NCBI GenBank assembly: GCA_016193315.1
Contig: JACPSJ010000001.1
Span: 535,478 to 599,477, forward strand
Direction of reading: 5' to 3'
DNA: 64,000 bases
From: Candidatus Kerfeldbacteria bacterium
GTDB lineage: Bacteria; Patescibacteriota; Patescibacteriia; SBBC01; CAIJZX01
The notes under the pieces were generated by a model. It ran no database searches. It worked only from the letters and a program-made list of their open reading frames with translations, and was not told the origin of the DNA. Shown here one piece after another: positions 6,153 through 39,001 of this stretch. The position numbers and the translations under genes are program-made. Each line of letters starts with the position of its first letter. Positions within the stretch are counted from its first letter, which is position 1.

Positions 6153-6192
6153 ACTTCTCCGATCTGAACAGCGATGGTACACTACGTTGGTT

Positions 6193-6699
6193 ATGGTGGC
6201 TAACATCTTACCACTCTGGTTCCTTCGCCAGCCCGATCAAGCCCGTCTCCTCCGACTGGTGGCTGGACCGGTCGTGGTGTCGACAATTCACCAGCGCTCC
6301 TTTCAGCAATTGATCGATGACATGGCTCAGACCATGGTCCATGCTCGCGGCATCGGCTTGGCCGCTCCGCAAATCGGCCAATCCATGCGCCTGGCGGTCA
6401 TCGATGGTGGGGTGGCGCAGCAGACCGAACCACTGGTGCTCATCAACCCCGTCGTCAAGCAGTCCACGCCCAATCAGGAAGCGATGGAAGAGGGTTGTCT
6501 TTCGATCCCTGGCGTCTTCGGCCTCGTCCCGCGCCCGACCGGCTTGTCCATGACCGCCCTGGATCGACGGGGGGCAACAATTTCCCTGAACGCAGTTGGT
6601 CTGTTGGCTCGCGTCATTCAGCACGAGATCGATCATCTCAACGGTCGCCTGTTCATCGACCGGGTGACGCGAATCACAGCTGGAAAGATTCCGTCATGA
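6193..6699 (+). CDS. def: Peptide deformylase
   Basis: Motifs GIGLAAPQIG, EGCLSIPG and QHEIDHLNG. The start is taken at the internal ATG at 6193 (MVANILPLW), downstream of the priA stop; the track ORF begins earlier at 6016 inside priA. Confidence 0.85.
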   Translation: MVANILPLWFLRQPDQARLLRLVAGPVVVSTIHQRSFQQLIDDMAQTMVHARGIGLAAPQIGQSMRLAVIDGGVAQQTEPLVLINPVVKQSTPNQEAMEEGCLSIPGVFGLVPRPTGLSMTALDRRGATISLNAVGLLARVIQHEIDHLNGRLFIDRVTRITAGKIPS

Positions 6700-24644: not shown

Positions 24645-25090
24645 CAACGTTTGTATACTCTGCTTTAAGAATCGAAGGGCAGGAGCGATCCCGCCGAATG
24701 GCGGGAGAGCGTCCGCCGAGCCGCCAGTGGCGGGTCGGCGCTGCCCAGGGACGATTCCCCCTACCCGCTCTGACAAAAACGCGCGAGTCTGATCGTCTGA
24801 AGCCGACGGTGTTTGTATTCGCTGCATAAGGAATCGAACGGGCCGAGCACTTCTGCCAGCGGCCGGAGAGCGCCGACCCAGGCCCGAGTCCCGCCTCGAG
24901 CGGGACGAGTGGTCGATTCCCCCTACCAGCTCCAAAGAGTTTTCACCGGCACGATGAAATGTCAAAACCATTTTTTGAATACCCGACGTTAGGAATCGAA
25001 CCGGGTGAACCCAAAGTGCCTGCCCAAGTGGTAGAGAATGCCGGCTGGTATTCGTCAGTAGTGGCTTGAACTTTGTTTTCGCGCTCATGG
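24645..25090 (+). repeat. Three tandem ~160-nt units, each starting TAAG(G)AATCGAAnGGG and (units 1-2) ending CGATTCCCCCTACCnGCTC (tRNA-Gly 3'-end-like)
   Basis: Direct comparison of 24645-24780, 24822-24934 and 24971-25090. Unit 2 ends TACCAGCTCCA. Unit 3 carries GGAATCGAACCGGG..GAACCCAAAGTGCCTGCC, which resembles the tmRNA 5' region. No protein-coding potential. Confidence 0.5.
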
Positions 25091-25111
25091 GCGTGTTTCA
25101 AGATACCACGC

Positions 25112-25939
25112 TCAGCGGTCCTTGACAAGGAGCGGCCCCACGAACTGGTCGATGCGTCGCCCGAGTTCGGCTCGGAGTCCGGGGTCGCGAACCGGACGGT
25201 GAGTACTGGCCGACAAGACCACCAGCTGGTGTGGCGAGTTAGTCATCCGCTCAGACAGCACGGTCGCGCTCTGGGTAGCTACGTACGGGTCACCTTTGGT
25301 GCTCACGATCAAGGTTGGCACACGAAGCCGTGGTAGGGCCGGCCAGACAAAGGTGGCGATGAACCACTCTGTTTCCAGCAGTCCACCAATTGGCCAGCGG
25401 TCGAGCGACCCAATCTCCCGCATCCGGCGCCGATCCTCTGTGGTCAGGTTTGGTTTGTGATAGTACGGGGTAAACAGCCGGAGCCACCGTAAGCCAAGCC
25501 GTCGGAACCAAACCGCGCCGCGATAGCGGACTGGCGTATTCACCGTCACCACAGCCAACAGCTGTGCTGGAGCGTGGATGGCGTAGTCAATCGCGAGTGA
25601 GCCGCCAAACGAGAAACCCAGCAGCACAATCTGACGGCAACGCTGTTTCAGTAGTCGGGCCGCGGCAAAGACCGAGGCCCGCCAATCGGCGCTGTCGGTA
25701 CCGGCCAAGGTAGTGGGACCGCGTCCATGCCCAGCCACGGTCAAGCCGAGTATACTGTACCCTCGAGCTCGAAGATCGTGGGCCAGTTCACGGTAATCGC
25801 CGATGCTACCGCCGTAGCCGTGGATAATGAGAATCCCGACCGGTCCGGCCGGGAGCCAGAACGGTCGCGCCCCAGCAGACAGCCCGGTTGACTGACGGGC
25901 GATCCATGCGCTAATCTTGTCGCTGGCAGCCGTGTTCAT
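25112..25939 (-). CDS. Alpha/beta hydrolase fold protein
   Basis: 275 aa; HGYGGS oxyanion region and the GFSFGG (GxSxG) nucleophile elbow. Confidence 0.7.
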   Translation of the reverse strand: MNTAASDKISAWIARQSTGLSAGARPFWLPAGPVGILIIHGYGGSIGDYRELAHDLRARGYSILGLTVAGHGRGPTTLAGTDSADWRASVFAAARLLKQRCRQIVLLGFSFGGSLAIDYAIHAPAQLLAVVTVNTPVRYRGAVWFRRLGLRWLRLFTPYYHKPNLTTEDRRRMREIGSLDRWPIGGLLETEWFIATFVWPALPRLRVPTLIVSTKGDPYVATQSATVLSERMTNSPHQLVVLSASTHRPVRDPGLRAELGRRIDQFVGPLLVKDR

Positions 25940-26086
25940 CGCCGTTGAAGCTTCCAGCCAACCTCAGTTGTCAGCTCCACAAGGTCCTCACCATGCTAGT
26001 CCACCGCCGTCAGCCAAACGCATTGCACGTTCGTCGACTGGCCACCCACCTTTAACCAAAACAAATACATTGGTAGACCCGCCCGC

Positions 26087-26273
26087 CCTGGCCTGAGCCC
26101 GCGTAGCTCAGTTGGTAGACCTGCCCGCCAAAGACCGAGCCCATGTAGCTCAACTGGTAGAGCAATCCCTTCGTAAGGGAAAGGTTGTCGGTTCGATTCC
26201 GACCATGGGCTTTTGGCGAGGGCAGGCGGGGCAATGCTTTCGTAAAGCAGAGGTCGTCGGTTCGATCCCGACC
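26087..26273 (+). other. Split tRNA-Thr(CGT)-like gene: 5' half (26087-26110) and 3' half (26221-26273) flank an inserted intact tRNA-Thr
   Basis: 5' half GCCCGCG-TAGCTCAGTTGGTAGAC. 3' half ATGCT-TTCGTAA-AGCAG / GTCGG-TTCGATC-CCGAC / CGCGGGC-T-CCA, whose acceptor strand is exactly complementary to the 5' half. The intervening 110 nt contain inverted repeats (CCTGCCCGCCAAA / TTTGGCGAGGGCAGG) around a complete tRNA-Thr. Confidence 0.45.
26129..26201 (+). tRNA. tRNA-Thr (anticodon CGT), no encoded CCA
   Basis: Acceptor GCCCATG/CATGGGC, D-arm GCTC-AACTGGTA-GAGC, anticodon loop TTCGTAA with CGT at 26162-26164, T-arm GTCGG-TTCGATT-CCGAC. Confidence 0.75.
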
Positions 26274-26327
26274 GCGGGCTCCAGACGAGAGCAGGCAGGA
26301 AGCAAGCCCAGCGGGTCATCAGTCGTT

Positions 26328-27299
26328 TCAAGAGTTCGTCACTCGTCCCGCCCCCCGGTCCCATTGTAAACCCCGCACCCAGACGAACACTCGACGCTCC
26401 TGGAGATAACGTGTAATTGCGGCATCGACTGACGGGGCGGCAATAAAAATCTGCGCCACCCGGACTTCTCGTTCGCCTTCGACTTGACGTTCTCCCAAAA
26501 CGCTGATGATATGCCAGCCAAATTTCGTATGGATCAGATCGCTGGTCTGGCCGACCGGCAAACTCCAGGCCGCATCGTCGATGGCTTCATCCTGCTCGCC
26601 ACGTTTGATAAAGCCGAGGTCACCCCCATTCGGCGCATAGGCGTCCTCGCTATAGGTTTTGGCCAGCTCGGAGAATGACTGCTGACCGGCTTGGACCAGG
26701 GCGAACACGCGTTCCGCTTGGCGGCGTGCGGTCTGATTGAGGCGGTCGTCGAATGACAGTTGCTGACGCAGCTTGTCGCGGGCCACGGCCAGCCGAACGA
26801 CGTGGGCTTTGTACTGGGCCAGCGTCCATCCGTATAGCTTGGCGATAGTCCGGGTGGTGAGTGCCCGATCGCCGGCTTGCAGGATTTGGGCGGTGAAAGC
26901 TTGGTCAACGTCAGAGGTCGAAACTGTTACCCCCCAGCGCTCGAGCAGGGCCAAGGTAGCGGCCTGACGGACGAGCTTATCCAGTGCCGCCTGATCGACG
27001 CGAGCCGCGCCGACACCCGCGGCGCCGTCGGTCGAGCTGGTCGGCACAGCTTGTCGGTAGTGCTCAATCGCCTGACGTTCTTCGAGGAAGGTGTGGATCG
27101 GGATAACCCGCCAGCCGACGGTGGCCGCTGGGAGGGGGGTGTACCGTGTCACGCCAATGGCCAGCTGATCATGCCAGTCAAGACCGTAGACACCCGTGGC
27201 CACCCCGGCCACCCCCAGCAGAATCACCACCACCAGACTGACCAGCACTCGACGCCAACGGTGGATCATGGCGGCTCTCATTTGATCGAGGAAGGTCAT
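26328..27299 (-). CDS. Membrane-anchored PpiC-type (parvulin) peptidyl-prolyl isomerase, PrsA/SurA-like
   Basis: 323 aa; N-terminal TM; C-terminal parvulin motifs (NGGDLGFIKRGE..., FGWHII). Confidence 0.65.
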   Translation of the reverse strand: MTFLDQMRAAMIHRWRRVLVSLVVVILLGVAGVATGVYGLDWHDQLAIGVTRYTPLPAATVGWRVIPIHTFLEERQAIEHYRQAVPTSSTDGAAGVGAARVDQAALDKLVRQAATLALLERWGVTVSTSDVDQAFTAQILQAGDRALTTRTIAKLYGWTLAQYKAHVVRLAVARDKLRQQLSFDDRLNQTARRQAERVFALVQAGQQSFSELAKTYSEDAYAPNGGDLGFIKRGEQDEAIDDAAWSLPVGQTSDLIHTKFGWHIISVLGERQVEGEREVRVAQIFIAAPSVDAAITRYLQERRVFVWVRGLQWDRGAGRVTNS

Positions 27300-27308
27300 G
27301 GATGTATT

Positions 27309-27752
27309 TTACGTTGAAGATGAAGAATTGGGAACGCTTGGCGACCGACCGAAGAAATACTGCCACCACAGCCTGGCGGTCGACACCGGCGAGCGGCTGC
27401 CCCTGGGGGTCGTCGGCAAGCCATTGGTCTTCTCAGCATCCACGTTAACCGTCCCCGGCGGAACGACAATCACCCGCTCACCAGACTTTCGTAAACCGAG
27501 CTTCAGCCGAGCCTCCCGCTCTTGGTACGTTTGGCTCCGAAGATAGGTGATCAGTTCCGCCAGCTGTTCTTGCCGACGCTCTTCGTCGGTCACTTGCTGG
27601 CGCAAGCGTTGGACTTGCTGTCGGACCTGATCAGAACGCGCCGATTCGCGAATGATCGCCACCGTGAAGAGCACCACCAGGCTGCCGCTGACCACGACCA
27701 TCCACCAACTGAGCGTCGGTCGGTCCGGAGGTTGCCACCGCGAGCGACGCAT
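27309..27752 (-). CDS. FtsB/DivIC-like septum formation initiator (TM plus coiled coil)
   Basis: 147 aa; single TM (WWMVVVSGSLVVLFTVAII) followed by a coiled coil (QVRQQVQRLRQQVTDEERRQEQLAELI). Confidence 0.5.
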   Translation of the reverse strand: MRRSRWQPPDRPTLSWWMVVVSGSLVVLFTVAIIRESARSDQVRQQVQRLRQQVTDEERRQEQLAELITYLRSQTYQEREARLKLGLRKSGERVIVVPPGTVNVDAEKTNGLPTTPRGSRSPVSTARLWWQYFFGRSPSVPNSSSST

Positions 27753-28384
27753 TAGGGGCGACTCCTCTGACGGCCAGTCATGGGTCTAGTCGGTGCGGCG
27801 CGGCCGCTGCTGTCTGGGCTGGTTTGTTGCCACTCGATGATCGTCTTAACGAGTTCAGCGGCCGATGGCTGACCGCTTGATCGTTCGGCCGCCGCGCGGC
27901 GCTGGAGATCAGTGATCAACTGCTGGATAGTAACTGGATCCTTCACCCCGGACAGCTCGAGGTTGGTGGTCGTGCCGGCAGTCTGGACCACAATCGAGCC
28001 GAATCGGAAGAGCGTCTGCCACAAGCCGCGGCTAGCGTACCGAACGTCCTGAATTTTGTCATACGCGGCTTCAGCCACGGTCCGTTGAAAAAAACCTTGC
28101 TGGTCGATATCGATGATCCGTTGATTGGTGATGAGCAACACATTCCGCGACCACACATAGAGTGCGCGCAGACCGGACCAGACAGCGATGGCGAGGACGA
28201 CCCCAAAACCGAGCGCCCCCCAACCCCGCCATTGGAACCACCAGGCGAGCAGAAAGAAATCGGCCACCATCAACAAGCCACTGCCGACCAATGGCGGGAC
28301 GAGTGTCAGGGCGTAGGGACGGACGAGTTGGACTAGCTCTTCCCCCTCTTTCAGTTGTTTGCTAAGATAATTATGCCAGGGCAT
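27752..28384 (-). CDS. Membrane-flanked bacterial PH domain protein (bPH_2, YdbS/YdbT-like)
   Basis: 210 aa; two TM helices followed by a PH-like region (VLLITNQRIIDI...). Confidence 0.5.
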   Translation of the reverse strand: MPWHNYLSKQLKEGEELVQLVRPYALTLVPPLVGSGLLMVADFFLLAWWFQWRGWGALGFGVVLAIAVWSGLRALYVWSRNVLLITNQRIIDIDQQGFFQRTVAEAAYDKIQDVRYASRGLWQTLFRFGSIVVQTAGTTTNLELSGVKDPVTIQQLITDLQRRAAAERSSGQPSAAELVKTIIEWQQTSPDSSGRAAPTRPMTGRQRSRP

Positions 28385-28388
28385 ACCT

Positions 28389-28493
28389 ATGAAGCGACGT
28401 CATCTGGAGCGACTGTGGATCGTGCTGTCGATTATCATGATCGCCGGGATGATTATGTTTACCATTGGTCCAGCTCTCGGCTTCCTGATCTAG
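28389..28493 (+). CDS. Candidate 34-aa small membrane peptide
   Basis: ATG at 28389 gives MKRRHLERLWIVLSIIMIAGMIMFTIGPALGFLI, a basic N-terminus plus one TM helix, in the 105-nt gap between two minus-strand genes. The RBS is weak. It is not in the ORF track because it falls below the length cut-off. Confidence 0.25.
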   Translation: MKRRHLERLWIVLSIIMIAGMIMFTIGPALGFLI

Positions 28494-30298
28494 TGTTTGA
28501 GCACCGCCAAGTACGCTGACGGCGGCAGGTCAACTTTCCCGAACGCCCGCAACCGCTGCTTACCGCGTTTTTGTTTGGCCAACAGTTTCCGTTTTCGTGT
28601 CACGTCACCGCCATACAGTTTGGCGGTCACGTCCTTGCGGCGAGCCGGGACGGTGGCCGCGGCCACAATGGTGCCGCCCACCACGGCTTGGATTTTAACC
28701 TCGAACAGCTGCCGCGGCAAGAGGCTTTTGAGCGTCTCCACTGCCTTCCGCCCGGTGGGGTACTGTTGATCCTGATAGACCATGGTTGACAAAGCCTCAA
28801 ACCGCTGCCCGGCGATGAGGATATCGAGTCGTACGAGTTCGGCCGCCCGGTAACCGGACAAGGCATAACTCACCGTCGCGTATCCGGCGCTGACGCTCTT
28901 GATGTGGTCGTAAAAATCCACCAGGATCGATGCCAGCGGGACGGAGAAATGGAGGACCGCCCGGTCGGGAGTCAAGTAACCCAGGCTGAGAAACTGTCCA
29001 CGATAGGGCCGGACGGTTTCGAGCACTGGGCCAATGAACTGACTAGGAGTGAGGACATCGAGCTTGACCACTGGTTCCTCAATCTGCTCGATGGTGGCCG
29101 CATCAGGCAGCTCGAGTGGGCCGCGGATAATGAGGGGGTGCTGGGCCCCGCGGGTCCAGACGTGGTAGGCGACCGAGGGTGTGGTGATCGTGATGGGTAC
29201 CTGATACTCGCGGGCCAGGCGTTCACGGACTATGTCTAGATGGAGCAGGCCCAAGAACCCGCCACGGAATCCAGCCCCGAGCGCGGGTGAGTGTTCCGGT
29301 TCAAAGGTAATGGCCGCATCATTGAGTCTCAATTTCTCCAGCCCTTGGCGCAGACGGGGTAGGTCGTGGCCATCGGCCGGGAAGAGCCCAGCGAAGACCA
29401 TGGGTGTCACTGGCTGGTAGCCAGTCAAGGGATCGAGCCGGATCCCAGCCGGGGCGATGGTGTCGCCGACCCGCGCCTCGACGACCGTTTTTAAGCCGGT
29501 CACGACGTAACCAATTTCCCCAGCCGTTAACGTTGATGTTGGTACCAGTTGCGGATGAAACTGGCCGACCGCCTGGACGGTGGAAGTGGCTTGGCGACCG
29601 AGGAATTGAATGTTCATCGACGGTGCGATCCGCCCATCAACAACCCGCACGTAGGCCACTACCCCCTGGTACGGATCGAAGGTCGAATCAAAAATCCGAG
29701 CCCGCAGCGGTTGCTCTGGTCGGCCGGCTGGCGGCGGAACATCAGTGATGATGCGCTCCAGGATCGCCTCGATGCCGTGGCCCTGCTTGGCCGAAGCGGC
29801 AATAATCGATCGTTGATCGATTTGTAATAACTGGGCCAACTCTGTTTTGACCCGGGGCAGATCGGCGTTTGGCAGGTCGATCTTATTGACCACCGGGATA
29901 ATGGCCAGTCCGGCCCGACGAGCGGCCTCAAGATTGGCCAGCGTTTGCGCCTGGAGACCCTGACTTGCATCGACGACCAAAACCGCTCCCTCAACCGAAG
30001 CCAAGGAGCGCGACACTTCATAAGCGAAATCGACGTGGCCGGGAGTATCAATCAGATTCAGCTGGTATCCGCGCCAGTCCATCCGGACCGGGGCCAACTT
30101 GACCGTAATCCCCCGCTCCCGCTCAATATCCATTTGGTCGAGGTACTGATCGCGCATGGCCCGACGGGGCACAGTGTCAGTACGCTCGAGAAATCGGTCG
30201 GCCAAAGTCGATTTGCCGTGATCGATGTGAGCGATGATACAAAAATTTCTGATTTTCCCCAGGCTGGTCATGACGAACGGGTCAAACCGTTCCGCCAC
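28490..30298 (-). CDS. lepA: Elongation factor 4 (LepA)
   Basis: 602 aa; G1 AHIDHGKST, G3 DTPGH, and the LepA-specific C-terminal domain. Confidence 0.9.
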   Translation of the reverse strand: MAERFDPFVMTSLGKIRNFCIIAHIDHGKSTLADRFLERTDTVPRRAMRDQYLDQMDIERERGITVKLAPVRMDWRGYQLNLIDTPGHVDFAYEVSRSLASVEGAVLVVDASQGLQAQTLANLEAARRAGLAIIPVVNKIDLPNADLPRVKTELAQLLQIDQRSIIAASAKQGHGIEAILERIITDVPPPAGRPEQPLRARIFDSTFDPYQGVVAYVRVVDGRIAPSMNIQFLGRQATSTVQAVGQFHPQLVPTSTLTAGEIGYVVTGLKTVVEARVGDTIAPAGIRLDPLTGYQPVTPMVFAGLFPADGHDLPRLRQGLEKLRLNDAAITFEPEHSPALGAGFRGGFLGLLHLDIVRERLAREYQVPITITTPSVAYHVWTRGAQHPLIIRGPLELPDAATIEQIEEPVVKLDVLTPSQFIGPVLETVRPYRGQFLSLGYLTPDRAVLHFSVPLASILVDFYDHIKSVSAGYATVSYALSGYRAAELVRLDILIAGQRFEALSTMVYQDQQYPTGRKAVETLKSLLPRQLFEVKIQAVVGGTIVAAATVPARRKDVTAKLYGGDVTRKRKLLAKQKRGKQRLRAFGKVDLPPSAYLAVLKH

Positions 30299-31872
30299 AC
30301 CCGGTCACGGAGTTGCTGCCAGACGGAGGTCAGGAGCGAAGCCTCAGACAGTCGGAAGAGGCTGGCAAAAATAGCATAGGAAATTAACCCGACGGCCCCG
30401 GCCACCACCGCCTGCGCTAGCACGCCGACCGCACGCGTCAGGTCGAGCCCGAAACTGACCAAGAAATACTTAGTCGCTTGAACCGTCAGAGCCATCAGGA
30501 TGGTGACGCCGAGGATCTTGATGACCGACTGGATAATCCGATCGTCATCGAGATGACCAATCCGCCGGTGGAGTGTCAGCGCCAACAGTCCGGCGTTCAG
30601 CACGCTCGAGACCGAGTATGCCAGGGCCAGTCCCTGAACACCCATGATCGGGCTGAGGACGACCGATCCGAGAATGGCAATACTAACCGCGGCGATAGTG
30701 TACCGCATCGGCGTTTTGGTATCCTGCATGGCATAGAACGAGCGGGCCAGCACGGGTATCAAAGATTGAGCAAAGAAGGAGAGGGCAAAAAAGCCGAGTG
30801 TCTGGGCGGTGGCGATCGTTTCCGGCCAGCTGACCTGGCCCGCTCCGATGATGACCCGAACGAACTGGGCCCGCAACTGCAAAAATAACACAGTCACGGG
30901 GATAATGACAAACAGGATGTTTCGGACAATGGTTGAGAACTGCTGCACGAATTCTTCGCGGCGCCCCTGACTGAGCAGTTCGACGAAGCGTGGGAATGCC
31001 ACGGTGGCCATCGACAAACCCATGATCGTGACTGGGAAGTCTTGGATGTCGTTGGCCCAACGGAAAATCGATAGGTTCGCCGGCCCGAGGCGAGTGGCGA
31101 TGGGAATAGTCGCCAACTGATTGAGCTGGGTGACGGATTGACCGACTGTTCGCGGCACCAGGAGCTGTCCGATCTGTCGGACGCCGGGGTGTCGCCAACC
31201 AGCCCCTCGACCCGGACGCCAGCCAACCCGCCAGGCCGCCGCGGCGTGGATGGTGGTGTGGAGGAATGCCCCCCCGACCGCCCCCCAGGCCACCCCAGCC
31301 GGACCGAGCACCGGCACGAACCACAGGAGGCCGGCGATGATCCCGAGGTTATTGAAGATCGGCGCCAGCGACACGGCGACGAAATGGCGGAACGAGTGTA
31401 GAACGCCAGCAAAAACATTGCTAATCGAAAAGAGGAGCATGTTCATTGACATGATCCGGGTCAGGACGATCGCCGTGTGTTGGGCCGCCAAGCCGAACTT
31501 GTGACCGACCAGGAGTTTGACGAGCGGCTCAGCGGCCACGAGCAGAATTAAGCCTAAAGAAAAAAAGACGATCATTAGGATGTTGAGGATCGAGCGGGAG
31601 ATGCGCCAGGCCTCAGCCTGGTCGCGCTGCCGGTAGGCGATGAACACCGGCATGAACGACGTCAGCAGCGAGCCGAGGATCAGCGTTCCGTAGATGAAAT
31701 CGGGGATAGCAAAGGCCGCGTAGATCGGGTCCGCCCCCTCGGCGCCGAAGGTCGAGGCGATCAGGCGCTGCCGGATCAGACCAAAGAGTTTACTTAAGAT
31801 CCCGGTGACTCCCACCAGGACCGCGCCGCCCAGAATTGTGGTCTGGATTGTCTCCAGCAATTTCCGCCACAT
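30268..31872 (-). CDS. murJ: Lipid II flippase MurJ (MviN family)
   Basis: 534 aa, about 14 TM; MOP-superfamily MurJ pattern. Confidence 0.8.
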   Translation of the reverse strand: MWRKLLETIQTTILGGAVLVGVTGILSKLFGLIRQRLIASTFGAEGADPIYAAFAIPDFIYGTLILGSLLTSFMPVFIAYRQRDQAEAWRISRSILNILMIVFFSLGLILLVAAEPLVKLLVGHKFGLAAQHTAIVLTRIMSMNMLLFSISNVFAGVLHSFRHFVAVSLAPIFNNLGIIAGLLWFVPVLGPAGVAWGAVGGAFLHTTIHAAAAWRVGWRPGRGAGWRHPGVRQIGQLLVPRTVGQSVTQLNQLATIPIATRLGPANLSIFRWANDIQDFPVTIMGLSMATVAFPRFVELLSQGRREEFVQQFSTIVRNILFVIIPVTVLFLQLRAQFVRVIIGAGQVSWPETIATAQTLGFFALSFFAQSLIPVLARSFYAMQDTKTPMRYTIAAVSIAILGSVVLSPIMGVQGLALAYSVSSVLNAGLLALTLHRRIGHLDDDRIIQSVIKILGVTILMALTVQATKYFLVSFGLDLTRAVGVLAQAVVAGAVGLISYAIFASLFRLSEASLLTSVWQQLRDRVWRNGLTRSS

Positions 31873-32325
31873 ACAACAACCGCACGCAGTTTACCACTTT
31901 TTGGTCCGCCTGACAAGCCGCAAATACAAAAACGACCCACGGTTTGGGTTACCCCGCCAGCCGATAGGCACTTCTGGCTGAACCAGGAGCGGTCAACGCT
32001 CTGCGGTATCCAACGGAGGAGAACACCTTGCGGTGTGACATTGGGTCCTACAGCGCGCGGACATCACTGATTCAGCCGGAACTGCAACTGAACTCTTCCT
32101 ACAGTAGTCGCATGAGTTCCGTCGCTCGTCAAGACCCTCCAACCTCCCTGGCCGCCACCACCTGGCCCTGGCGACGCCGTGGAGGGACGGCGCACCGGGA
32201 CCGGGCGTGATGACGACCAGGAAAGTTCCGTTGCTTGATCGGGCAGCACAACGGTTCGGTCTCGCTGAAAGGAGCGACTAGCTACTCCACCAAAATACAC
32301 TTCATCAGAACTGTGCTTTGGTGGG

Positions 32326-32351
32326 GGCTCCGACTCAATAGAGTCGGAGCC
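32326..32351 (-). terminator. Perfect 11-bp hairpin GGCTCCGACTC-aata-GAGTCGGAGCC downstream of the collagen-like gene
   Basis: Seen directly; lies 26 nt after the stop at 32377; no U-tract, so it may be a stabiliser or bidirectional terminator. Confidence 0.45.
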
Positions 32352-32376
32352 TGAAATGCGAGGGGAGGAACGAGAC

Positions 32377-32988
32377 CTAGACGGTGGTGACCGGCGGGGC
32401 GGCAGCGCCAGGGGCACCCGGCGTGGTCTCGGCCGCCGGAGCCGGAACACGATCCCGGATGATGACCACGCGCCCTGGCACCTGGCCTTCTTCCCGGACC
32501 ACGGCGCGGGCCGTGTCCCGCACCGCGGCGGTGAATGTGGCGCTCGCGAATAGATCGGTGCCGGCCGTGGCCGGGCCGACTCCGGCTATCGCGACCGACG
32601 CATGGTGATGGGCCATCGCGACGTGGAACGCATTCCGGGCTTCGGTCCGCGCGGCGCCGAGCTGCCAGAAGATGATCGGCATCCCGACCACCACCAGCAG
32701 GGTCACGATCGCCACCCAGACCAGAGACATATTGCCCCGGTCGTAGGCGATGACCAACTGACTCGACTGCTCCGGCGAGAACGTCCCGACCGGCCCCTGG
32801 ACGCCCTGTTGACCCTGCGGTCCTCTCGGCCCCCGCTCGCCGCGCGGACCCTGCGGCCCGACCACCACGGCGGTCGCGGGCTGGCCCTGATCCTCGACCA
32901 GGGCCGCCGACGCACTCGACTCCGGCCCCTGGGCCAGAACCGGAACGGCCAAGGCCATGAGCAGGAAAACGACGGTGATGAGCTTCAA
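32377..32988 (-). CDS. Secreted collagen-like (Gly-X-Y) repeat protein with C-terminal TM anchor
   Basis: TTG start with AAGGAGGG 4 nt upstream; signal peptide MKLITVVFLLMALAVPVLA; 13 consecutive G-X-Y triplets (GPQGPRGERGPRGPQGQQGVQGPVGT); TM LVWVAIVTLLVVVGMPIIFWQL; Ala/Pro-rich tail. Confidence 0.6.
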   Translation of the reverse strand: MKLITVVFLLMALAVPVLAQGPESSASAALVEDQGQPATAVVVGPQGPRGERGPRGPQGQQGVQGPVGTFSPEQSSQLVIAYDRGNMSLVWVAIVTLLVVVGMPIIFWQLGAARTEARNAFHVAMAHHHASVAIAGVGPATAGTDLFASATFTAAVRDTARAVVREEGQVPGRVVIIRDRVPAPAAETTPGAPGAAAPPVTTV

Positions 32989-33502
32989 GTCTCCCTCCTT
33001 GATTGCGCCGCTCCACCATGAAGCGGCGATCCGACCCCGTATGAAATCACGGGGCTAAATTGCTGCTTCATGGTAAAGCCTCTTCTGAACACCACCGAAC
33101 AGGAGGTGAGCGTATGGCGTTGCCTTCCGCGAAGCCACGTTTTACGTGGTGAAGCGGGGTCGTCGCCATTGATGCGCCAAGACCATGGGGCCGAAGAGTA
33201 GCAACCCTCAAGCCTATGGATCCGGCACGGCCGGACAGCGTCCATGCTGGCTGTCCGCTAGTCCGGTGCTCTCCCCTCCTTGTCGGTGGTGTCTCGCTGT
33301 TGTAAAAGTACGTTCTGACTTGAACGATCGATCGTTGATCAATCATTCAAGTCAGAGGGGGAGTGCGGTACAGAACCACGCTCCCCTCTCTATGCTTCAC
33401 AATCCCTAGCGGGATTGGACCGCAACCTTAGTTGCGGGATTTTGTCCAAAGGGCGTTTCAGGAAGACATATCACCCCTTACTCACGCCTGGCTTCGCCAG
33501 GG

Positions 33503-34003
33503 TTAGGCTACGCGCTGGTGACCGTGGCCTCTCCTCCGGCCGGATCCCGGCTTGTCGATCCGCTCGCCAGGACGGTCGAAGGCGGAGCGCAGACGGTAGT
33601 CGGCCACACTGCGGCCGACTTGCTTCGGATTCTTGCGGTGGTCGTGGACCGCCGCTTTGCCATTGCCGTTCAAGGCAGCAATGGTAGCAGTGTAGGCCTC
33701 GGCCGCTTCCGTCCGGAGCTGCTCCTGCCTCTGTTGGCGAGCCAGCATACCCTCAGCCTCGAAAAGCTGGCGGAAGGCGCGGTCCCGAGCCTCTCTCCAC
33801 CAGCCGATCTGGAGAGCCATTCCCTTCAGATGCTGTCCGAGCTGCTGCAGCTGGTTCTGTTCGGCTGGCGTCTCGCCCGGGCAGGATTCGATGTCCTGCT
33901 GGGCGCGATCGGCTGCCTCGGCCAGGAGCCGAAGATTGCGCTCCGCCTCCTCCATCCTGGCCTTGAGGGAAACGATCCGCTCCGACAGCGACACAGAACT
34001 CAT
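33503..34003 (-). CDS. Coiled-coil protein of unknown function
   Basis: 166 aa; ATG preceded by AGGAGG 7 nt upstream; heptad-rich sequence (LKARMEEAERNLRLLAEAADRAQQDIE...). Confidence 0.55.
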   Translation of the reverse strand: MSSVSLSERIVSLKARMEEAERNLRLLAEAADRAQQDIESCPGETPAEQNQLQQLGQHLKGMALQIGWWREARDRAFRQLFEAEGMLARQQRQEQLRTEAAEAYTATIAALNGNGKAAVHDHRKNPKQVGRSVADYRLRSAFDRPGERIDKPGSGRRRGHGHQRVA

Positions 34004-34149
34004 GAGATTCCTCCTGCCCGACTTGGGCGGAATGGGGTAATGGTTTGTACGGTACGACCGGATCTTCCGGCCGGTGGTCTCAACGCATCGTTAAGCTCAC
34101 CGGGGGAGGGCGGTGCGGGTCCGAGTTGAACTCGGGCACCGCCCAGGAA

Positions 34150-34338
34150 CTACTTCTCCACCCTTGGCTCGTCCGCCTTCTCCTTCGGCTGTCGGCACTT
34201 GCAGTCCGCGCCCCGGCACCGACAGAACTCGGAGATCCGGTAGCCAGCGGCCTGGGCCGTGGTGAGCGCCTGCGCGTCGACGACCCCGCCGCGTTCGGCC
34301 GACTTGGCCAAGGCAATCAACGCTTCGCGAGGACCCAT
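34150..34338 (-). CDS. 62-aa protein with C-terminal Cys cluster (CRCRGADCKCRQPKEK)
   Basis: ATG preceded by GGAGGG 5 nt upstream; CxC-x5-CxC motif suggests a small metal-binding knuckle. Confidence 0.5.
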   Translation of the reverse strand: MGPREALIALAKSAERGGVVDAQALTTAQAAGYRISEFCRCRGADCKCRQPKEKADEPRVEK

Positions 34339-34393
34339 AGTTCCCTCCAGTTCCGGTCTGCCCGACCGGCGGGGTGGCCGTAGCCACGGTGGC

Positions 34394-34756
34394 TCAGTCG
34401 GCTTCTCGTTCGGCCGCCAGCTCCCTCTCCGGACGGGGGTGGATGTCTCGCGTTCTGGTCCGACCCCGCGAAGGGATGAACACCAGGATGAGCATCATGA
34501 TCCCGCTGACGAAGAGCACGCCGGAGATGATCAGGAAGCTTGGCGCTCCGAAGTCGCGGACGGCGTTTACCACGACAACGGCGGTGTTGTGCAGCCACTC
34601 GAGGAGAGCGGCTGTGGCCTGCTGCAGGCCGTTGGCCAGGAGCGCCGTCTGCTGCCGGAAGTAGTCCGGCCGACAGAGGAAGCTGATCCCGGCCGAGACG
34701 AAGCCCCCAGCGACGAAGACCACAGCGGTGACCAACAGTTTCAACCGTTTCGGCAT
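34394..34756 (-). CDS. Small two-TM membrane protein
   Basis: 120 aa; ATG preceded by AAAGGAGC; TM1 LLVTAVVFVAGGFVSAGISFL and TM2 FLIISGVLFVSGIMMLILVFI; Arg-rich tail. Confidence 0.55.
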   Translation of the reverse strand: MPKRLKLLVTAVVFVAGGFVSAGISFLCRPDYFRQQTALLANGLQQATAALLEWLHNTAVVVVNAVRDFGAPSFLIISGVLFVSGIMMLILVFIPSRGRTRTRDIHPRPERELAAEREAD

Positions 34757-34773
34757 GTTTAGCTCCTTTGCAG

Positions 34774-34953
34774 TTAGTCGGTCGCAGTCGACCCAGACGC
34801 CTCGTCTGTATCTTCGAGAGTCTGGTTGCGACTCCAGATGACGTCACGGATCTCCTGGCCGATCGTACGGCAGGCCGTGACGAGGGTATCCAGATCGAAC
34901 TGCTGACCGGCAATGAAGCGGTTGACGAAGTCCTCGGCTTCGGCCTTGGTCAT
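34774..34953 (-). CDS. 59-aa acidic protein (MTKAEAEDFVNRFIAGQQFDL...); a longer upstream-extended form is possible
   Basis: ATG at 34953 is preceded by AGGAGAAG 5 nt upstream. The frame stays open up to the TTG at 35133 (track ORF), with an alternative ATG at 35082. Confidence 0.45.
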   Translation of the reverse strand: MTKAEAEDFVNRFIAGQQFDLDTLVTACRTIGQEIRDVIWSRNQTLEDTDEASGSTATD

Positions 34954-35151
34954 CGTCACTTCTCCTGGGACAGCAGACGAACTGTCTTGATCCGGCCTGG
35001 CCACAGTTTCTGGTTCGATCATGCCAAACCTAGAAAGCTGGGTTGTGATCGTCCGGCGTAGACGACTGAATAGTACCTGCATTGCTGTCACTCCGTTCTG
35101 ACGGCAGGGGTGGTGGTAGGTGGATGGTGACAAAGATCGAAGGTGCTTCTC

Positions 35152-35358
35152 TCACTTGGGCGCCCCATGCTTGATGGAAGCGCCCGAGTGAGGGGAGGAG
35201 TTGTGGAGGGGAAACTCCTCCCGCGTGGCTGGAACGAGGTCGTAGAGGCTGATCCCTGGCTGGTAGCGCAGGTGATACAAGCTGTTTTCGACCTCATACT
35301 CCAGTTCGACCGGTTGGCCGGTCAGATCGTTGATGTACCGCCGCGAGATGATGCTCAT
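35152..35358 (-). CDS. 68-aa protein of unknown function
   Basis: ATG at 35358 is preceded by GGAGG 7 nt upstream (MSIISRRYINDLTGQPVELEYEVENSLYHL...); the C-terminal low-complexity tail overlaps hairpin H1. Confidence 0.45.
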   Translation of the reverse strand: MSIISRRYINDLTGQPVELEYEVENSLYHLRYQPGISLYDLVPATREEFPLHNSSPHSGASIKHGAPK

Positions 35359-35505
35359 GGCTGTACCTCCTTGATAGGTGCGGCCGACTCCTCGCTCGAA
35401 CATTCCATACTTCCGTACCGAATGCTCGAGTGAGAGTAGGAAGATGTTGCCATCCTCCTCTCACCGTGTGTGACACCGGGTGAGCGGTGGTGCAATGCCT
35501 AGCGG

Positions 35506-35892
35506 CTAGCCGGCCTGTTCGGGAGACCGAACGTCCATGGCGCAGAGACTCAGACAAAAGAGCCAAAAGGCCGTGCCGATGAGGTAGAACTGCCACGGCA
35601 TGAGGTCCATGCGAACCTGCTCGCCGCCGACGGCGATGATGGCCGACGCCACATAGGCCAGGATCGTGCCGAGGAGTTTGATCGGTCGGCTCGACTGCAT
35701 CAGCGGGTAAGTCAGACCGCCGAAGACCAGACCGACGAGGCCGAAGAAGGCGGCCGCCGCCATGTTGAGGTCCTTGGCCGAGGCTAGATGCGCCGGGGCG
35801 AACGCCCCTTGAAGCGCGGTGTACCACAGGTAGAAGCAGCCGGAAACGGTGGCCACAATGACGGCCAGGCCAGTCCAACGAATCGGACGCAT
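35506..35892 (-). CDS. Four-TM membrane protein of unknown function
   Basis: 128 aa with four hydrophobic helices; GGAG-type RBS 12 nt upstream. Confidence 0.55.
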   Translation of the reverse strand: MRPIRWTGLAVIVATVSGCFYLWYTALQGAFAPAHLASAKDLNMAAAAFFGLVGLVFGGLTYPLMQSSRPIKLLGTILAYVASAIIAVGGEQVRMDLMPWQFYLIGTAFWLFCLSLCAMDVRSPEQAG

Positions 35893-36844
35893 TCGATCTC
35901 TTTCTCCGCCTAGAGCGGATGGAATGTACGATCCAGTTCCTTGTTCTTTACCTCACTTGAGCACTCAGATTCCCTCCAAGATTAGAAAGGGGGATGTTTG
36001 TGGGGGCTGAGTGCTCGAGCGAGGGTAAGATCTGGATCTCGATGCTCCCTTGAGCGCCCCGTGTGGAGGGACACGAGACGCTCGAGGGAGGGGGCGTCGC
36101 AGCACGAATACTGGACGCCCCAGGTGCGAGGAAGTGCCCGTTCACTTCCTCCGCTATTCAGCTCGGTCGAAAGGGCGTTACATAAATCCGGTCACGGCGT
36201 TCACCTCCTTGTTCAGGGATGGTGCCTCGAGGGAACGAATCAGGAGGCGAGCTGGAGGCGGCTTATGTCGACCGAAGTCAACGAACCGCCCAAATGTCCT
36301 TTGGCGTGGCTTTGGGAGTTTGCACCCCCTTGGCTACGATGTTAGGACGGCTGGATCCTGAGCCGCTTCAAGCGTGATCAGAACGCCAGTGCTCTCCCCT
36401 CCTTATTCCTCCCCTCTCTCGAAGGGACAGGTTTCTGCGACCAATGACACACGGCCACTGGCCGCAGAGCCTGTCCCGTCGAAATGGATACTCGGCTGGG
36501 GGAATCAACCCCTTTCTGTCGTCCCGATGCGCTTTGCCATCGGGCCTTCCTCCCTGCCCCTTGAGTTAAGGGGAAGGACATCAACAAAAAGGGTGGGGCG
36601 CGTTGAGGACCGATGAGCACCTGAATCTAGTTCAGGGTTAGTCGCCAACGCACCCCACCCTTCGGTGGCAATGGTTAGTAAATGTCGCTCCTCAACGACG
36701 CTGATGCTTGGTTGTAAGGCGCTGCCGGATCTCCTCTTCCTTCAGCCCAATTCAAGCGTAACAGGCCACTATAGAGCAGCCCTTGAATTTTGTCAAGGGG
36801 TACCTGGCCTAAAACGCCGTTTATCCGCTAACCTTAGCCTTTTT
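35893..36844. other. ~0.95-kb protein-free, highly structured segment (candidate large ncRNA / regulatory region)
   Basis: No ORF with an RBS on either strand. Perfect 11-bp hairpin at 36126-36154. Nested hairpins at 36420-36575 (GGACAGG...CCTGTCC, CCCGATG..CATCGGG, CCCCTTgagttAAGGGG). 15-bp inverted repeat GGGTGGGGCGCGTTG...CAACGCACCCCACCC at 36591-36660. 29-nt polypyrimidine tract at 36391-36419. Confidence 0.4.
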
Positions 36845-39001
36845 CTATTTCAGGACAACCTGGAATTGGCGGGAACGCTCGGATGTTGTCACCCAAACAG
36901 CCTGGCGCCCATCTCGCTGGCTTGAAGCGAGGGGCGCGAATTCTCGAACCTTGCGCGACCCCGGATCGAACGATAAAGTCCATCGGCGTTCGACCGTTCC
37001 TGGTTGTTTTTGCCAGATCATATTCCATAACCCGTGATCAGTGATCTGATCGAAGGGCACGGTATAGGTAAAGGTGATCGTTTGTTGCTGGCCGGGCGGC
37101 AGCAAGCTCCAGGCGCCGAAAACGCGCTTGCCGTTTTCGGCACTGAAACGGAAATGGTTGGTCGAATCGACCAGGACTTGACCTTCAGCCCGCTGAAGTT
37201 TCGACGATGGGGTGGTGCCAGGAGACGCGGTTTGGAAAAAACCCGCTGGCGGCGTCGAGGCGCCAGTGATCGACCCCAGCTGGGCTGAGGCCGGAACATA
37301 GATTCGCAGGAAGTCGTGGTTTGGTTGGAACCCGAGCGGATCGTCGGCTTGGCCGCCATGGACACGGGTCACCTTAACCGTGTGGCGAAGCAGACCGCTA
37401 TCGAGGGTGACGGCAATATCAACGTTTTCGGTCACTACACGATCTGTCTTCCCGCCGCCCAGATTACTATCAACCACGGACAGATAATCACCGTCGGTCT
37501 GGATAACGGCACCATTCCACCCTAGTTCGGCCACCGTCTGTCCGAAGTCAGGATCCTCGCTGGCCAGCATGATATTGGCCTGAGCGGCGTGAGACAAGAT
37601 CGTCACCACGGCCTCCAGTGCCTCGGCCGTGGGCAGTGAGCCAACGGACTGCAGCAGGACGGGAATAAGATCGAGAATGAACTGCTTCGGGTTATTGAGC
37701 GCTCGATCGAATTTTAATTCGACTTGCTGTTCCGTCGCGCGGACGAAGTTGTCGGCGGTCACGGCCACGTCATACCCCGGTGGGCGGAGCGGTCCGGTCA
37801 GGCGTAGTAAATCCTCGACCACGGCCGGGCTGAGCGCGATTACACCGTCCGGTCGAAAACCGCGGGCCTGCTCGTAGAAATCAAGCATGAACGAGGCTGA
37901 TGTCGGCCAGTCAAGAAACCAGTTGGCGTCATGGAATGCCCAGTACGGCGCCACCGCCAGCAGCGGTTCTGGTGGCCGCGTGGTATGCGGCGTCGTCGCC
38001 GTCAAGTCAAACGGGCCGGTCGCTGGCGCATCGACAATCCTCATCCGGCCACGGTCAAACTTGACGAGCACAAAAGTACCGGCAAACCCTCCGCTGGGCC
38101 GCAACTCATCATCATTCTGAAACACGACCAAATACTCTTGGGCTTGGTGCTGGGCAAACAAGCCGGTCAATAATCGACCAACCTGCTCGACCGCTCGGCC
38201 GTCAGGGAAGAATGACTGCTCGACCAGCTGCCACCAGCGCACCATTCTGGCGTAGTCGGCTGGCAGGACATCTGGATCGACCGATCGAAGAGCCCGTTCG
38301 GCCACGGCCAGATCGTTCACCACCGCAGTTAATGTGGCCGGCGCGCTGAAAATGGGCGTCAAAAACCCTAAGGATCCCTCCCATCCCTGAATCACGTCAC
38401 GCGGGGCGTTGGAGTGCGGGCGGGGGGCCGATGCCAGGGCTGTAGTCGCTCGTTGCCCGGCCTGGGCTAACGACTGGCCAGCCTGCGCTAGGGAACGAGC
38501 CGTCCGATATCGATTCCCGAGGCCGGGTAGGAACTCGACCATTGACGGTGGCAACCCCAACGGTCCTTGGAGGTCCGGCTCGATTCGCCCAAACAAGCGT
38601 TCGGCCTCGGCAAAATGCTGCCGCGCCGTAGCGACTTGATACTCGCGCCACGCCATCAGGCCAGCCTGAAGTTCTGACGCCGCCTGCTGTCCCCGGGTGG
38701 CCACCTGTCCGGCGGCCTGAGCGAACCGCGCGACGCCGACAATCGCTACGGCCGGGATGATAACCACCAACCCAACCACCAGAAAAAAGAAACTCTGCCG
38801 ACGGATTGACCCCCAGTCGCGGGCGGCGGCTGGCATATGCCAGGCGGCCGCCGGCCGCCGACGGAAGTGGCGACCTAAGTCCGGACGCGGAAGACGGCGC
38901 CGGTTTTCGGCCGCTTCCACCTGACGTTCCGCCACGATCTGGCGTAGATCGAGAACGTTGTGATCAGGAACGGGCGGGTGAACGTTTGGCGAGCTGCTCA
39001 T
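36845..39001 (-). CDS. Large membrane-anchored extracytoplasmic protein, possibly DUF4012 family (polysaccharide-locus associated)
   Basis: 718 aa; N-terminal TM (FFFLVVGLVVIIPAVAIVGV); coiled-coil-like Ala/Gln-rich region, then a long extracellular domain; sits at the head of the GT4-Wzz-GT4-PGT operon. Confidence 0.5.
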   Translation of the reverse strand: MSSSPNVHPPVPDHNVLDLRQIVAERQVEAAENRRRLPRPDLGRHFRRRPAAAWHMPAAARDWGSIRRQSFFFLVVGLVVIIPAVAIVGVARFAQAAGQVATRGQQAASELQAGLMAWREYQVATARQHFAEAERLFGRIEPDLQGPLGLPPSMVEFLPGLGNRYRTARSLAQAGQSLAQAGQRATTALASAPRPHSNAPRDVIQGWEGSLGFLTPIFSAPATLTAVVNDLAVAERALRSVDPDVLPADYARMVRWWQLVEQSFFPDGRAVEQVGRLLTGLFAQHQAQEYLVVFQNDDELRPSGGFAGTFVLVKFDRGRMRIVDAPATGPFDLTATTPHTTRPPEPLLAVAPYWAFHDANWFLDWPTSASFMLDFYEQARGFRPDGVIALSPAVVEDLLRLTGPLRPPGYDVAVTADNFVRATEQQVELKFDRALNNPKQFILDLIPVLLQSVGSLPTAEALEAVVTILSHAAQANIMLASEDPDFGQTVAELGWNGAVIQTDGDYLSVVDSNLGGGKTDRVVTENVDIAVTLDSGLLRHTVKVTRVHGGQADDPLGFQPNHDFLRIYVPASAQLGSITGASTPPAGFFQTASPGTTPSSKLQRAEGQVLVDSTNHFRFSAENGKRVFGAWSLLPPGQQQTITFTYTVPFDQITDHGLWNMIWQKQPGTVERRWTLSFDPGSRKVREFAPLASSQRDGRQAVWVTTSERSRQFQVVLK

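Follow-up and report, generated by a model that had tools for sequence, protein, structure and literature searches.

A short collagen-like stretch in an orphan, putative single-pass membrane protein from the variable DUF4012-murJ island of Candidatus Kerfeldbacteria

A 64,000-nucleotide stretch of contig JACPSJ010000001.1 (positions 535,478 to 599,477; hereafter the window), from a Candidatus Kerfeldbacteria bacterium, encodes on its minus strand a 203-aa protein (32377..32988) in which nine uninterrupted Gly-X-Y triplets lie between a hydrophobic N-terminus and a single transmembrane (TM) helix. On balance, the product appears to be a lineage-specific type I membrane protein whose ectodomain would carry a short collagen-type spacer or stalk, encoded in a fast-turnover island of envelope genes. 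Its role is best described as that of a putative variable component of the cell envelope or surface and not of a conserved collagen adhesin, since Gly-X-Y runs beside a TM helix recur, in variable copy number, in non-homologous proteins of the corresponding island in related genomes. An initial annotation of the window, made from the sequence alone, had placed this open reading frame (ORF) exactly, had assigned the organism to the Candidate Phyla Radiation (CPR), and had recognized a collagen-type stretch between signal peptide and TM helix; all three assignments held. Coordinates of the gene, of its parts and of its neighbors are collected in Table 1.

The ORF is probably a real gene, judging from the G+C content at third codon positions (GC3) along its entire length, the spacing of its Shine-Dalgarno sequence, the hairpins that bracket it, and its identical prediction by independent pipelines. 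G+C contents at the first, second, and third codon positions were 0.75, 0.54, and 0.84, respectively. GC3 remained between 0.79 and 0.93 across five consecutive sub-segments, and the values of 0.79-0.80 in the Ala/Pro-rich tail indicate that this part also lies in the coding frame. An overlapping 245-aa ORF had a GC3 of 0.55 and an 'off-frame' composition of Arg, Gly, and Pro, and the antisense ORF had the composition that reading a TM-coding strand in reverse should give. The GC3 of 0.84 in the frame of the gene versus 0.55 in the overlapping frame speaks against an antisense artefact. Together with this coding-frame signal, the TTG start just downstream of the Shine-Dalgarno sequence AAGGAGGG agrees with the earlier view that the gene looks real. 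The identical protein is annotated as a 'hypothetical protein' (HYY50_03040) on an 857-kb contig of a Candidatus Kerfeldbacteria metagenome-assembled genome (MAG). The gene was furthermore present on four Logan contigs, each of a different sequencing run, with DNA 100% identical to the window, and was called both in the MAG annotation and on the Logan contigs.

Hairpins on both sides are consistent with a separate transcription unit. The near-perfect hairpin with a U tract at 33314..33356 is read as a likely intrinsic terminator for the preceding gene (33503..34003), so that the collagen-like gene looks like a transcription unit of its own. Downstream, the 91-nt segment holding the GC-rich hairpin at 32326..32351 had a folding energy of -35.7 kcal/mol (z = -5.3), and a promoter-like site precedes murJ. 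The imperfect leader hairpin (33010..33079) could be a regulatory element of the collagen-like gene.

A non-functional ORF, whether very young, recently acquired, decaying or over-called in GC-rich DNA, and with a Gly-X-Y stretch that is a by-product of local duplication in sequence rich in Gly, Pro, and Arg codons, is considered improbable. Such an origin would be in keeping with the complete lack of relatives, with non-coding gaps of 504 and 514 nt on either side of the gene that are unusually long for a compact genome, with a composition unlike that of core genes, with a 36-nt duplication inside the repeat, and with a lack of variation among contigs that might have revealed selection. However, the signal peptide and TM segment are well formed and correctly placed, the Shine-Dalgarno sequence is strong and properly spaced, GC3 is uniformly high over 203 codons free of stops, and the flanking hairpins are arranged like those of a transcription unit. 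Furthermore, the sequence was identical in four separate samples, which points to a locus that is stable in the population.

The product reads MKLITVVFLLMALAVPVLA/QGPESSASAALVEDQGQPATAVVV-GPQGPRGERGPRGPQGQQGVQGPVGTF-SPEQSSQLVIAYDRGNM-SLVWVAIVTLLVVVGMPIIFW-QLGAART...PPVTTV. Its hydrophobic N-terminus (aa 1-19) closes with a cleavage-type motif, V-L-A/Q, in agreement with the signal peptide of the initial annotation; by the -3/-1 rule, signal peptidase would be expected to cleave after Ala19. The TM segment (approximately aa 88-108) was called from Kyte-Doolittle windows of 19 aa with values above 2.0. It had been described earlier as a C-terminal membrane anchor, a label that needs correction because the helix is central, with a further 95 residues on its C-terminal side. 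From these two segments an N-out/C-in topology is predicted. No LPXTG motif is present in the translated sequence, and searches of Pfam, NCBIfam, and PDB sequences recognized no trimerization domain next to the Gly-X-Y run. A single-sequence AlphaFold2 (AF2) model had a mean predicted local distance difference test score (pLDDT) of 57, too low for a fold search, and comprised a helix at aa 2-19, coil at 20-71, a long helix at 72-135, and a poorly defined tail. The highest pLDDT values (80-85) were at aa 91-110, over the TM segment. In this single-chain model the Gly-X-Y stretch was coil (pLDDT approximately 55-59), and the helix at aa 72-135, which adjoins the repeat, extends across the TM segment; the overall confidence was low.

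The Gly-X-Y stretch is collagen-typical, with Pro in the X position of five of the nine triplets and Gln (4/9) or Arg (3/9) in the Y position, and it includes two GPR triplets and one GER triplet. Five Pro, five Gln, and three Arg among its 27 residues bear out the Pro/Gln/Arg richness noted previously, while the count of thirteen uninterrupted triplets is revised to nine (aa 44-70). With the upstream, in-register GQP-ATA-VVV included, Gly occupies 10 of 12 triplet slots. The run ends 17 residues before the TM helix. It was the sole run of at least five triplets in the six frames of the 64-kb window, and the longest run in 200 base shuffles was usually four and never above six; unmatched elsewhere in the window and longer than in every shuffle, it is more than a product of chance. 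Tandem Repeats Finder detected no DNA microsatellite at the repeat. A diverged internal duplication of 36 nt, or four triplets, was nevertheless discernible (32791-32823 versus 32827-32859, 76% identity). The collagen-repeat check proposed initially had a divided outcome: the Pfam Collagen family (PF01391) gave a local match at aa 35-69 (E = 1.4e-4), but its 22.0 bits lie below the gathering threshold of 27.2 bits. The NCBIfam models NF038330, NF038329, and NF046116 (Scl1, Scl2, Lcl) scored 18.2-21.5 bits against cut-offs of 325-500, and matched the Gly-X-Y stretch alone.

Homology searches indicate that the 203-aa protein is an orphan, related to other proteins through its Gly-X-Y stretch alone. 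A word-indexed search of 5.8 billion clustered proteins returned the protein itself and six collagen-like proteins that matched only this stretch; the six resemble proteins of tail-fibre or BclA type, with 43-75% identity over 4-29% of the query. With aa 71-203 as the query, an exhaustive phmmer search of 1.84 billion representatives yielded the protein itself and three repetitive giant proteins. A set of 94 related murJ loci, together 1.05 Mb, was assembled through MurJ homologues in genomes, metagenomes, and Logan, and tblastn of the gene against these loci found no homologue. A PDB sequence search retrieved collagen peptides alone (E > 0.07), and outside the Gly-X-Y stretch the Pfam family DUF2946 matched at E = 2.3. 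Conservation of the repeat at the protein level in homologues had been set beforehand as a test of the collagen interpretation; two exhaustive protein searches and the 94 loci yielded no homologues in which it could be seen. Likewise, the comparison with related CPR genomes that had been suggested initially yielded self-matches or matches confined to the Gly-X-Y stretch.

Phage proteins were matched as well. The best PHROG profile matches to the Gly-X-Y stretch reached E = 1e-6, with PHROG 366, 5073, and 1806 among those of tail-fibre type. Thirteen tail-fibre or tail matches, and all others below E = 0.005, were confined to aa 25-84; a virion-structural family (phrog_38766) matched marginally (E = 0.0062) over aa 39-152. 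Matches to viral contigs of IMG/VR covered at most residues 11-96, with 41-73% identity in the best segments. A phage origin was rejected because the IMG/VR matches of the gene were restricted to the Gly-X-Y stretch, its neighbor had none, and the island contains no phage genes. A role as a phage tail fibre would also be at odds with the signal peptide and the TM helix.

A bona fide trimeric collagen surface protein, in line with the initial annotation, with a stalk that adheres to the host cell of a presumably episymbiotic CPR bacterium in the manner of Scl1/Scl2, Lcl, or BclA, is regarded as unlikely but deserving of consideration. Its composition is that of authentic prokaryotic collagens, the stretch is predicted to be extracytoplasmic between signal peptide and TM helix, the gene is situated in an envelope-related island, and the modelled long helix at aa 72-135 could, at low confidence, provide a trimerizing nucleus. 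Collagen-like regions as short as 27 residues have been named in Bacillus Bcl proteins (PMC8968730), which places nine triplets at the lower end of such regions. Triple-helix formation by the 27-residue stretch is possible, and would be favored by Pro in the X position, by the GPR and GER triplets, by the predicted adjacent helix, and by tethering of the chains to the membrane. In work on collagen peptides, however, a stable free triple helix needs approximately ten triplets of the most stabilizing sequence, and 27 residues without hydroxyproline are at the very lower limit. The protein has only nine triplets and no hydroxyproline system, and its scores fall under the Pfam gathering threshold and far under the NCBIfam adhesin cut-offs. 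No recognizable trimerization or ligand-binding domain is present, and only approximately 24 residues lie beyond the stalk. Furthermore, the protein is not conserved in any relative, analogous island proteins carry Gly-X-Y runs on the predicted cytoplasmic side or none, and in Burkholderia the shortest collagen-like regions have been doubted as triple helices (PMC4565658).

In the favored interpretation of a type I membrane protein with a short spacer or stalk, the N-terminus would be exported by the Sec pathway and cut by signal peptidase after Ala19. The mature protein would then display a 68-residue ectodomain with the nine Gly-X-Y triplets, anchored by the single helix at aa 88-108, while the 95-residue Ala/Pro-rich tail would stay in the cytoplasm. 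The Gly-X-Y stretch probably arose, at least in part, by the 36-nt duplication of four triplets. Most likely it would form an extended spacer of polyproline-II type that holds an N-terminal peptide of approximately 24 residues off the membrane; a trimeric collagen stalk of approximately 8 nm is conceivable if the TM segment and the adjacent helix trimerize. At the level of the lineage, Kerfeldbacteria would exchange or remodel this island of envelope genes rapidly.

Several points weigh against this interpretation. The gene is known from its sequence alone, and with no homologue there is no means of showing that its repeat or its frame is conserved. All five contigs with the gene are 100% identical and so offer no variation for a test of purifying selection; the identity of the four Logan contigs to the window precludes a comparison of alleles or of non-synonymous and synonymous substitution rates (dN/dS), and with respect to repeat number a single allele was found among the 857-kb MAG contig and the four Logan contigs. 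The predicted topology depends on simple hydropathy and the -3/-1 rule, and the positive-inside signal is weak, with one Arg before the TM helix versus two after it. Elevated GC3 could signify foreign origin and recent acquisition without an established function. Lastly, the function of a spacer or stalk is inferred.

The genomic setting adds to the view of a variable envelope component. The collagen-like gene is the last of seven small genes in an island of approximately 4.5 kb (32377..36844), preceded in order of transcription by genes for proteins of 128, 83/68, 119/59, 120, 62, and 166 aa. All genes of this region lie on the minus strand, in the order Bac_transf, GT4, a 205-aa protein, GT4, DUF4012, the island, murJ, lepA, bPH_2, DivIC, and PPIase. 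Both flanks (Bac_transf-GT4-GT4-DUF4012 and murJ-lepA-bPH_2-DivIC-PPIase) are collinear in relatives with 74-78% MurJ identity. The islands of these relatives encode different small proteins (TM peptides, coiled-coil, Cys-rich, and acidic proteins); almost none of them resembles those of the window, and none resembles the collagen-like gene. The DUF4012-murJ island is thus hypervariable in Kerfeldbacteria, its content being turned over while its flanks stay syntenic. A type IV pilin-like gene with an N-terminal methylation motif (PF07963, E = 1.6e-6) was found in the same island of one relative (L011:7910-8314), which supports an envelope or surface theme.

In the window, GC3 of the island genes was 0.77-0.85 versus 0.60-0.75 in core genes, the collagen-like gene having the highest value of the entire window, and many island genes of several relatives had GC3 well above the G+C content of their locus. 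An effect of expression was rejected as the cause, since GC3 was not elevated in the ribosomal-protein genes of a relative or in the enolase gene of the window. Pfam and PHROG assigned no family to the island neighbors, with the 120-aa protein matching a tape-measure family marginally (E = 0.0058). The island has three long non-coding gaps (504, 514, and 952 nt), and among Rfam families, searched over 25000-37500 for RNAs that might account for long intergenic gaps, tRNA alone was detected.

Comparison with the islands of other Kerfeldbacteria revealed a small family of proteins, confined to Kerfeldbacteria, with a recurring layout of signal peptide, ectodomain of approximately 100 aa, TM helix, (Gly-X-Y)n, and tail, hereafter TM-GXY proteins (Table 1). 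Every Gly-X-Y run of at least six triplets in a plausible gene of the 1.05 Mb belonged to these island proteins. The members are weakly homologous among themselves, and a whole-database profile search (alignment A3) returned five members alone, without the window protein. Their Gly-X-Y run starts 2-6 residues past the TM helix, is rich in Arg, Asp, and Lys (GRDGRDG... or GPKGDKG...), and shows together with the helix the motif W..L..GIAL...N/R-GRDGRDG. The run is predicted to be cytoplasmic, an odd site for a collagen-like segment. In one relative, a signal-peptide ORF (L022:5735-6196) overlaps the TM-GXY ORF (5961-6467) in another frame, probably owing to a frameshift from a sequencing error or in a pseudogene. 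The occurrence of Gly-X-Y runs of 0-13 triplets beside TM helices in unrelated island proteins suggests that these short runs are labile, membrane-near spacers.

Like the collagen-like gene of the window, the TM-GXY genes lie on the same strand in the island upstream of murJ and encode a signal peptide, one TM helix, and a short Gly-X-Y run; in contrast, their run follows the TM helix instead of preceding it, and homology is not detectable. That the window protein is a highly diverged or rearranged member of this family, with its Gly-X-Y run moved across the TM helix, is judged distinctly doubtful. Gene order offers some encouragement, as the series 58 aa, 171 aa, P0135, 201 aa, and murJ in locus L097 mirrors that of 62 aa, 166 aa, collagen-like gene, and murJ in the window, and the 171-aa protein is homologous to the 166-aa protein (E = 3e-8). 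The proteins are also of similar size (183-203 aa), with a signal peptide of A-x-A/Q type, and have in common a faint C-terminal motif, (V/I)xI(K)RDR, before a Pro/Ala-rich end. Yet BLASTP and hhalign matched the window protein to the family in the Gly-X-Y stretch alone (10 Gly-X-Y columns in hhalign), and shuffle-calibrated Smith-Waterman comparisons of the remaining parts gave p = 0.009-0.99 over six tests, not significant after correction. The exhaustive phmmer search with aa 71-203 retrieved no family member, and the order of Gly-X-Y run and TM helix is reversed. More broadly, it is a long shot that Kerfeldbacteria possess a lineage-specific class of fast-diversifying single-pass proteins, encoded in a hypervariable and compositionally distinct island between the surface-glycan cluster and murJ, with a collagen-type segment beside the TM helix that lies outside the membrane here and apparently inside elsewhere. 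If such segments trimerize, they would represent collagen stalks of minimal size, nucleated at the membrane and perhaps in some cases the first known from the cytoplasm, and the island would be a variable cassette for surface or host contact in an episymbiotic CPR lineage.

Among described systems, the window gene may work most like those for small Bucl-type collagen-like membrane proteins, without belonging to a defined family. The Burkholderia Bucl proteins range from approximately 40 to 380 aa with 3-30 Gly-X-Y triplets, many have a predicted signal sequence and/or TM segment, and most lack other recognizable domains (PMC4565658). Bucl proteins, especially the small Bucl1, Bucl4, and Bucl6, share with the window protein small size, a short Gly-X-Y region, and signal or TM segments. 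However, most Bucl repeats are without Pro and built of one or two dominant triplets (GAN, GAS, GTS), whereas the stretch in the window is Pro/Gln/Arg-rich and non-repetitive, and no sequence relationship is apparent. Furthermore, Bucl genes are conserved between species and differ in repeat number among strains, unlike the orphan gene of the window, which has no known variants. Scl1/Scl2, Lcl, and BclA resemble the window protein in their signal peptide, in their attachment to the surface, and in a Gly-X-Y region outside the cytoplasm in which X is occupied by Pro and Y by charged or polar residues. They differ in having a globular domain at the N- or C-terminus that trimerizes and an anchor of LPXTG or exosporium type, and Scl proteins have 50-79 or more triplets, whereas the window protein has nine, no globular domain, no LPXTG motif, and would be held by a TM helix. 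Phage tail fibres likewise contain short collagen-like runs inside otherwise unrelated proteins, but their likeness to the window protein stops at the Gly-X-Y stretch and adjacent residues (aa 25-84). In eukaryotes, collagen XIII/XVII, MARCO, SR-A, and ectodysplasin are single-pass proteins in which an extracellular, membrane-near collagenous segment is nucleated by an adjacent alpha-helical region. These are type II proteins, with the N-terminus inside and no cleaved signal peptide, whose collagenous domains are far longer and carry prolyl hydroxylation; the membrane-near collagenous segment is shared with the window protein, but neither sequence nor phylogeny relates them to it.

Literature searches brought up no paper that describes a collagen-like protein from Patescibacteria or CPR. 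The window gene adds a CPR case to the known bacterial membrane proteins of small size whose collagen-like part is very short, which is of modest significance alone; the DUF4012-murJ island, with its small secreted or membrane orphan proteins and its recurring Gly-X-Y runs beside TM helices, is a more interesting lead than the gene. If the island encodes surface variation or host contact, it would offer a defined locus for the study of envelope diversification in uncultured episymbionts.

Table 1. Positions of the collagen-like gene, its parts and its neighbors in the window, and of TM-GXY island proteins in related murJ loci (locus numbers prefixed L).
Feature	Coordinates	Strand	Size	Identifier	Basis or remark
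Orphan gene; putative bitopic membrane protein with short collagen-like stretch	32377..32988	-	203 aa	NCBI HYY50_03040	ORF listing, GC3
Shine-Dalgarno sequence	33000..32993	-			4-nt spacer AGAC, then TTG start 32988..32986; read from sequence
Predicted signal peptide, MKLITVVFLLMALAVPVLA-QG	32932..32988	-	aa 1-19		Hydropathy windows 1-6 above 1.6; AF2 helix 2-19
Nine uninterrupted Gly-X-Y triplets, GPQGPRGERGPRGPQGQQGVQGPVGTF	32779..32859	-	aa 44-70		Translation, run count
Predicted TM helix, SLVWVAIVTLLVVVGMPIIFW	32665..32727	-	aa 88-108		Hydropathy peak 2.79
Tail, Ala/Pro/Val-rich, predicted cytoplasmic	32380..32664	-	95 aa		Without recognizable domain; low AF2 confidence
Long imperfect leader hairpin, inverted repeat I1	33079..33010	-			Abuts Shine-Dalgarno sequence of collagen-like gene; z = -4.5
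Near-perfect hairpin and U tract	33356..33314	-	20 bp		Terminator scan; folding z = -7.8
GC-rich hairpin, terminator-like without U tract	32351..32326	-	11 bp		Starts approximately 26 nt past stop
DUF4012 protein, last gene of glycosyltransferase/Bac_transf cluster, upstream flank	36845..39001	-			Pfam DUF4012 E = 8e-28; synteny
murJ, lipid II flippase, downstream flank	30268..31872	-			Pfam MurJ E = 1.4e-69; synteny
Orphan gene, coiled coil	33503..34003	-	166 aa		GC3-based pick; Logan gene calls
Orphan gene	34150..34338	-	62 aa		GC3-based pick; Logan gene calls
Orphan gene, TM	34394..34756	-	120 aa		GC3-based pick; Logan gene calls
Small orphan gene	34774..35133	-			GC3-based pick; Logan gene calls
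Small orphan gene	35152..35403	-			GC3-based pick; Logan gene calls
Orphan gene, TM	35506..35892	-	128 aa		GC3-based pick; Logan gene calls
TM-GXY island protein	L015:9112-9678		188 aa	P0132	5 Gly-X-Y triplets
TM-GXY island protein	L097:3495-4046		183 aa	P0135	8 Gly-X-Y triplets
TM-GXY island protein	L034:1435-2241		268 aa	none	7+6 Gly-X-Y triplets
TM-GXY island protein	L039:2828-3649		273 aa	P0131	9 Gly-X-Y triplets
TM-GXY island protein	L022:5961-6467		168 aa	P0133	3+6 Gly-X-Y triplets
TM-GXY island protein	L098:2962-3831		289 aa	P0134	0 Gly-X-Y triplets

Further observations concern the island and the public records. The 952-nt stretch downstream of DUF4012 (35893..36844) has no credible ORF or Rfam match and contains two inverted repeats (35945-36030 and 36589-36662). 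A basic tail with an HQRVA, HQRAA, HQQAA, QRAA, or RKAA ending closes the coiled-coil island proteins of the window (33503..34003, minus strand) and of four relatives (L097:2567-3082, L015:6422-6850, L006:8153-8641, and L010:5537-6427), and -RSA, -RRA, or -AA also closes many of the other small ORFs in the islands of relatives; these shared endings could represent a C-terminal tag or a degron-like motif. Four loci with 57-66% MurJ identity (L010, L016, L017, and L018) come from MAGs titled 'uncultured Gammaproteobacteria', with neighboring matches to Kerfeldbacteria/Patescibacteria, and the titles are apparently taxonomic mislabels in public records. Elsewhere in the window, a weak tRNA-like Rfam match on the plus strand (26222..26280; 23.9 bits versus a gathering score of 29, no ARAGORN call) is located 10 nt past tRNA-Thr(CGT) (26138..26212) and may be a degenerate or partial copy.

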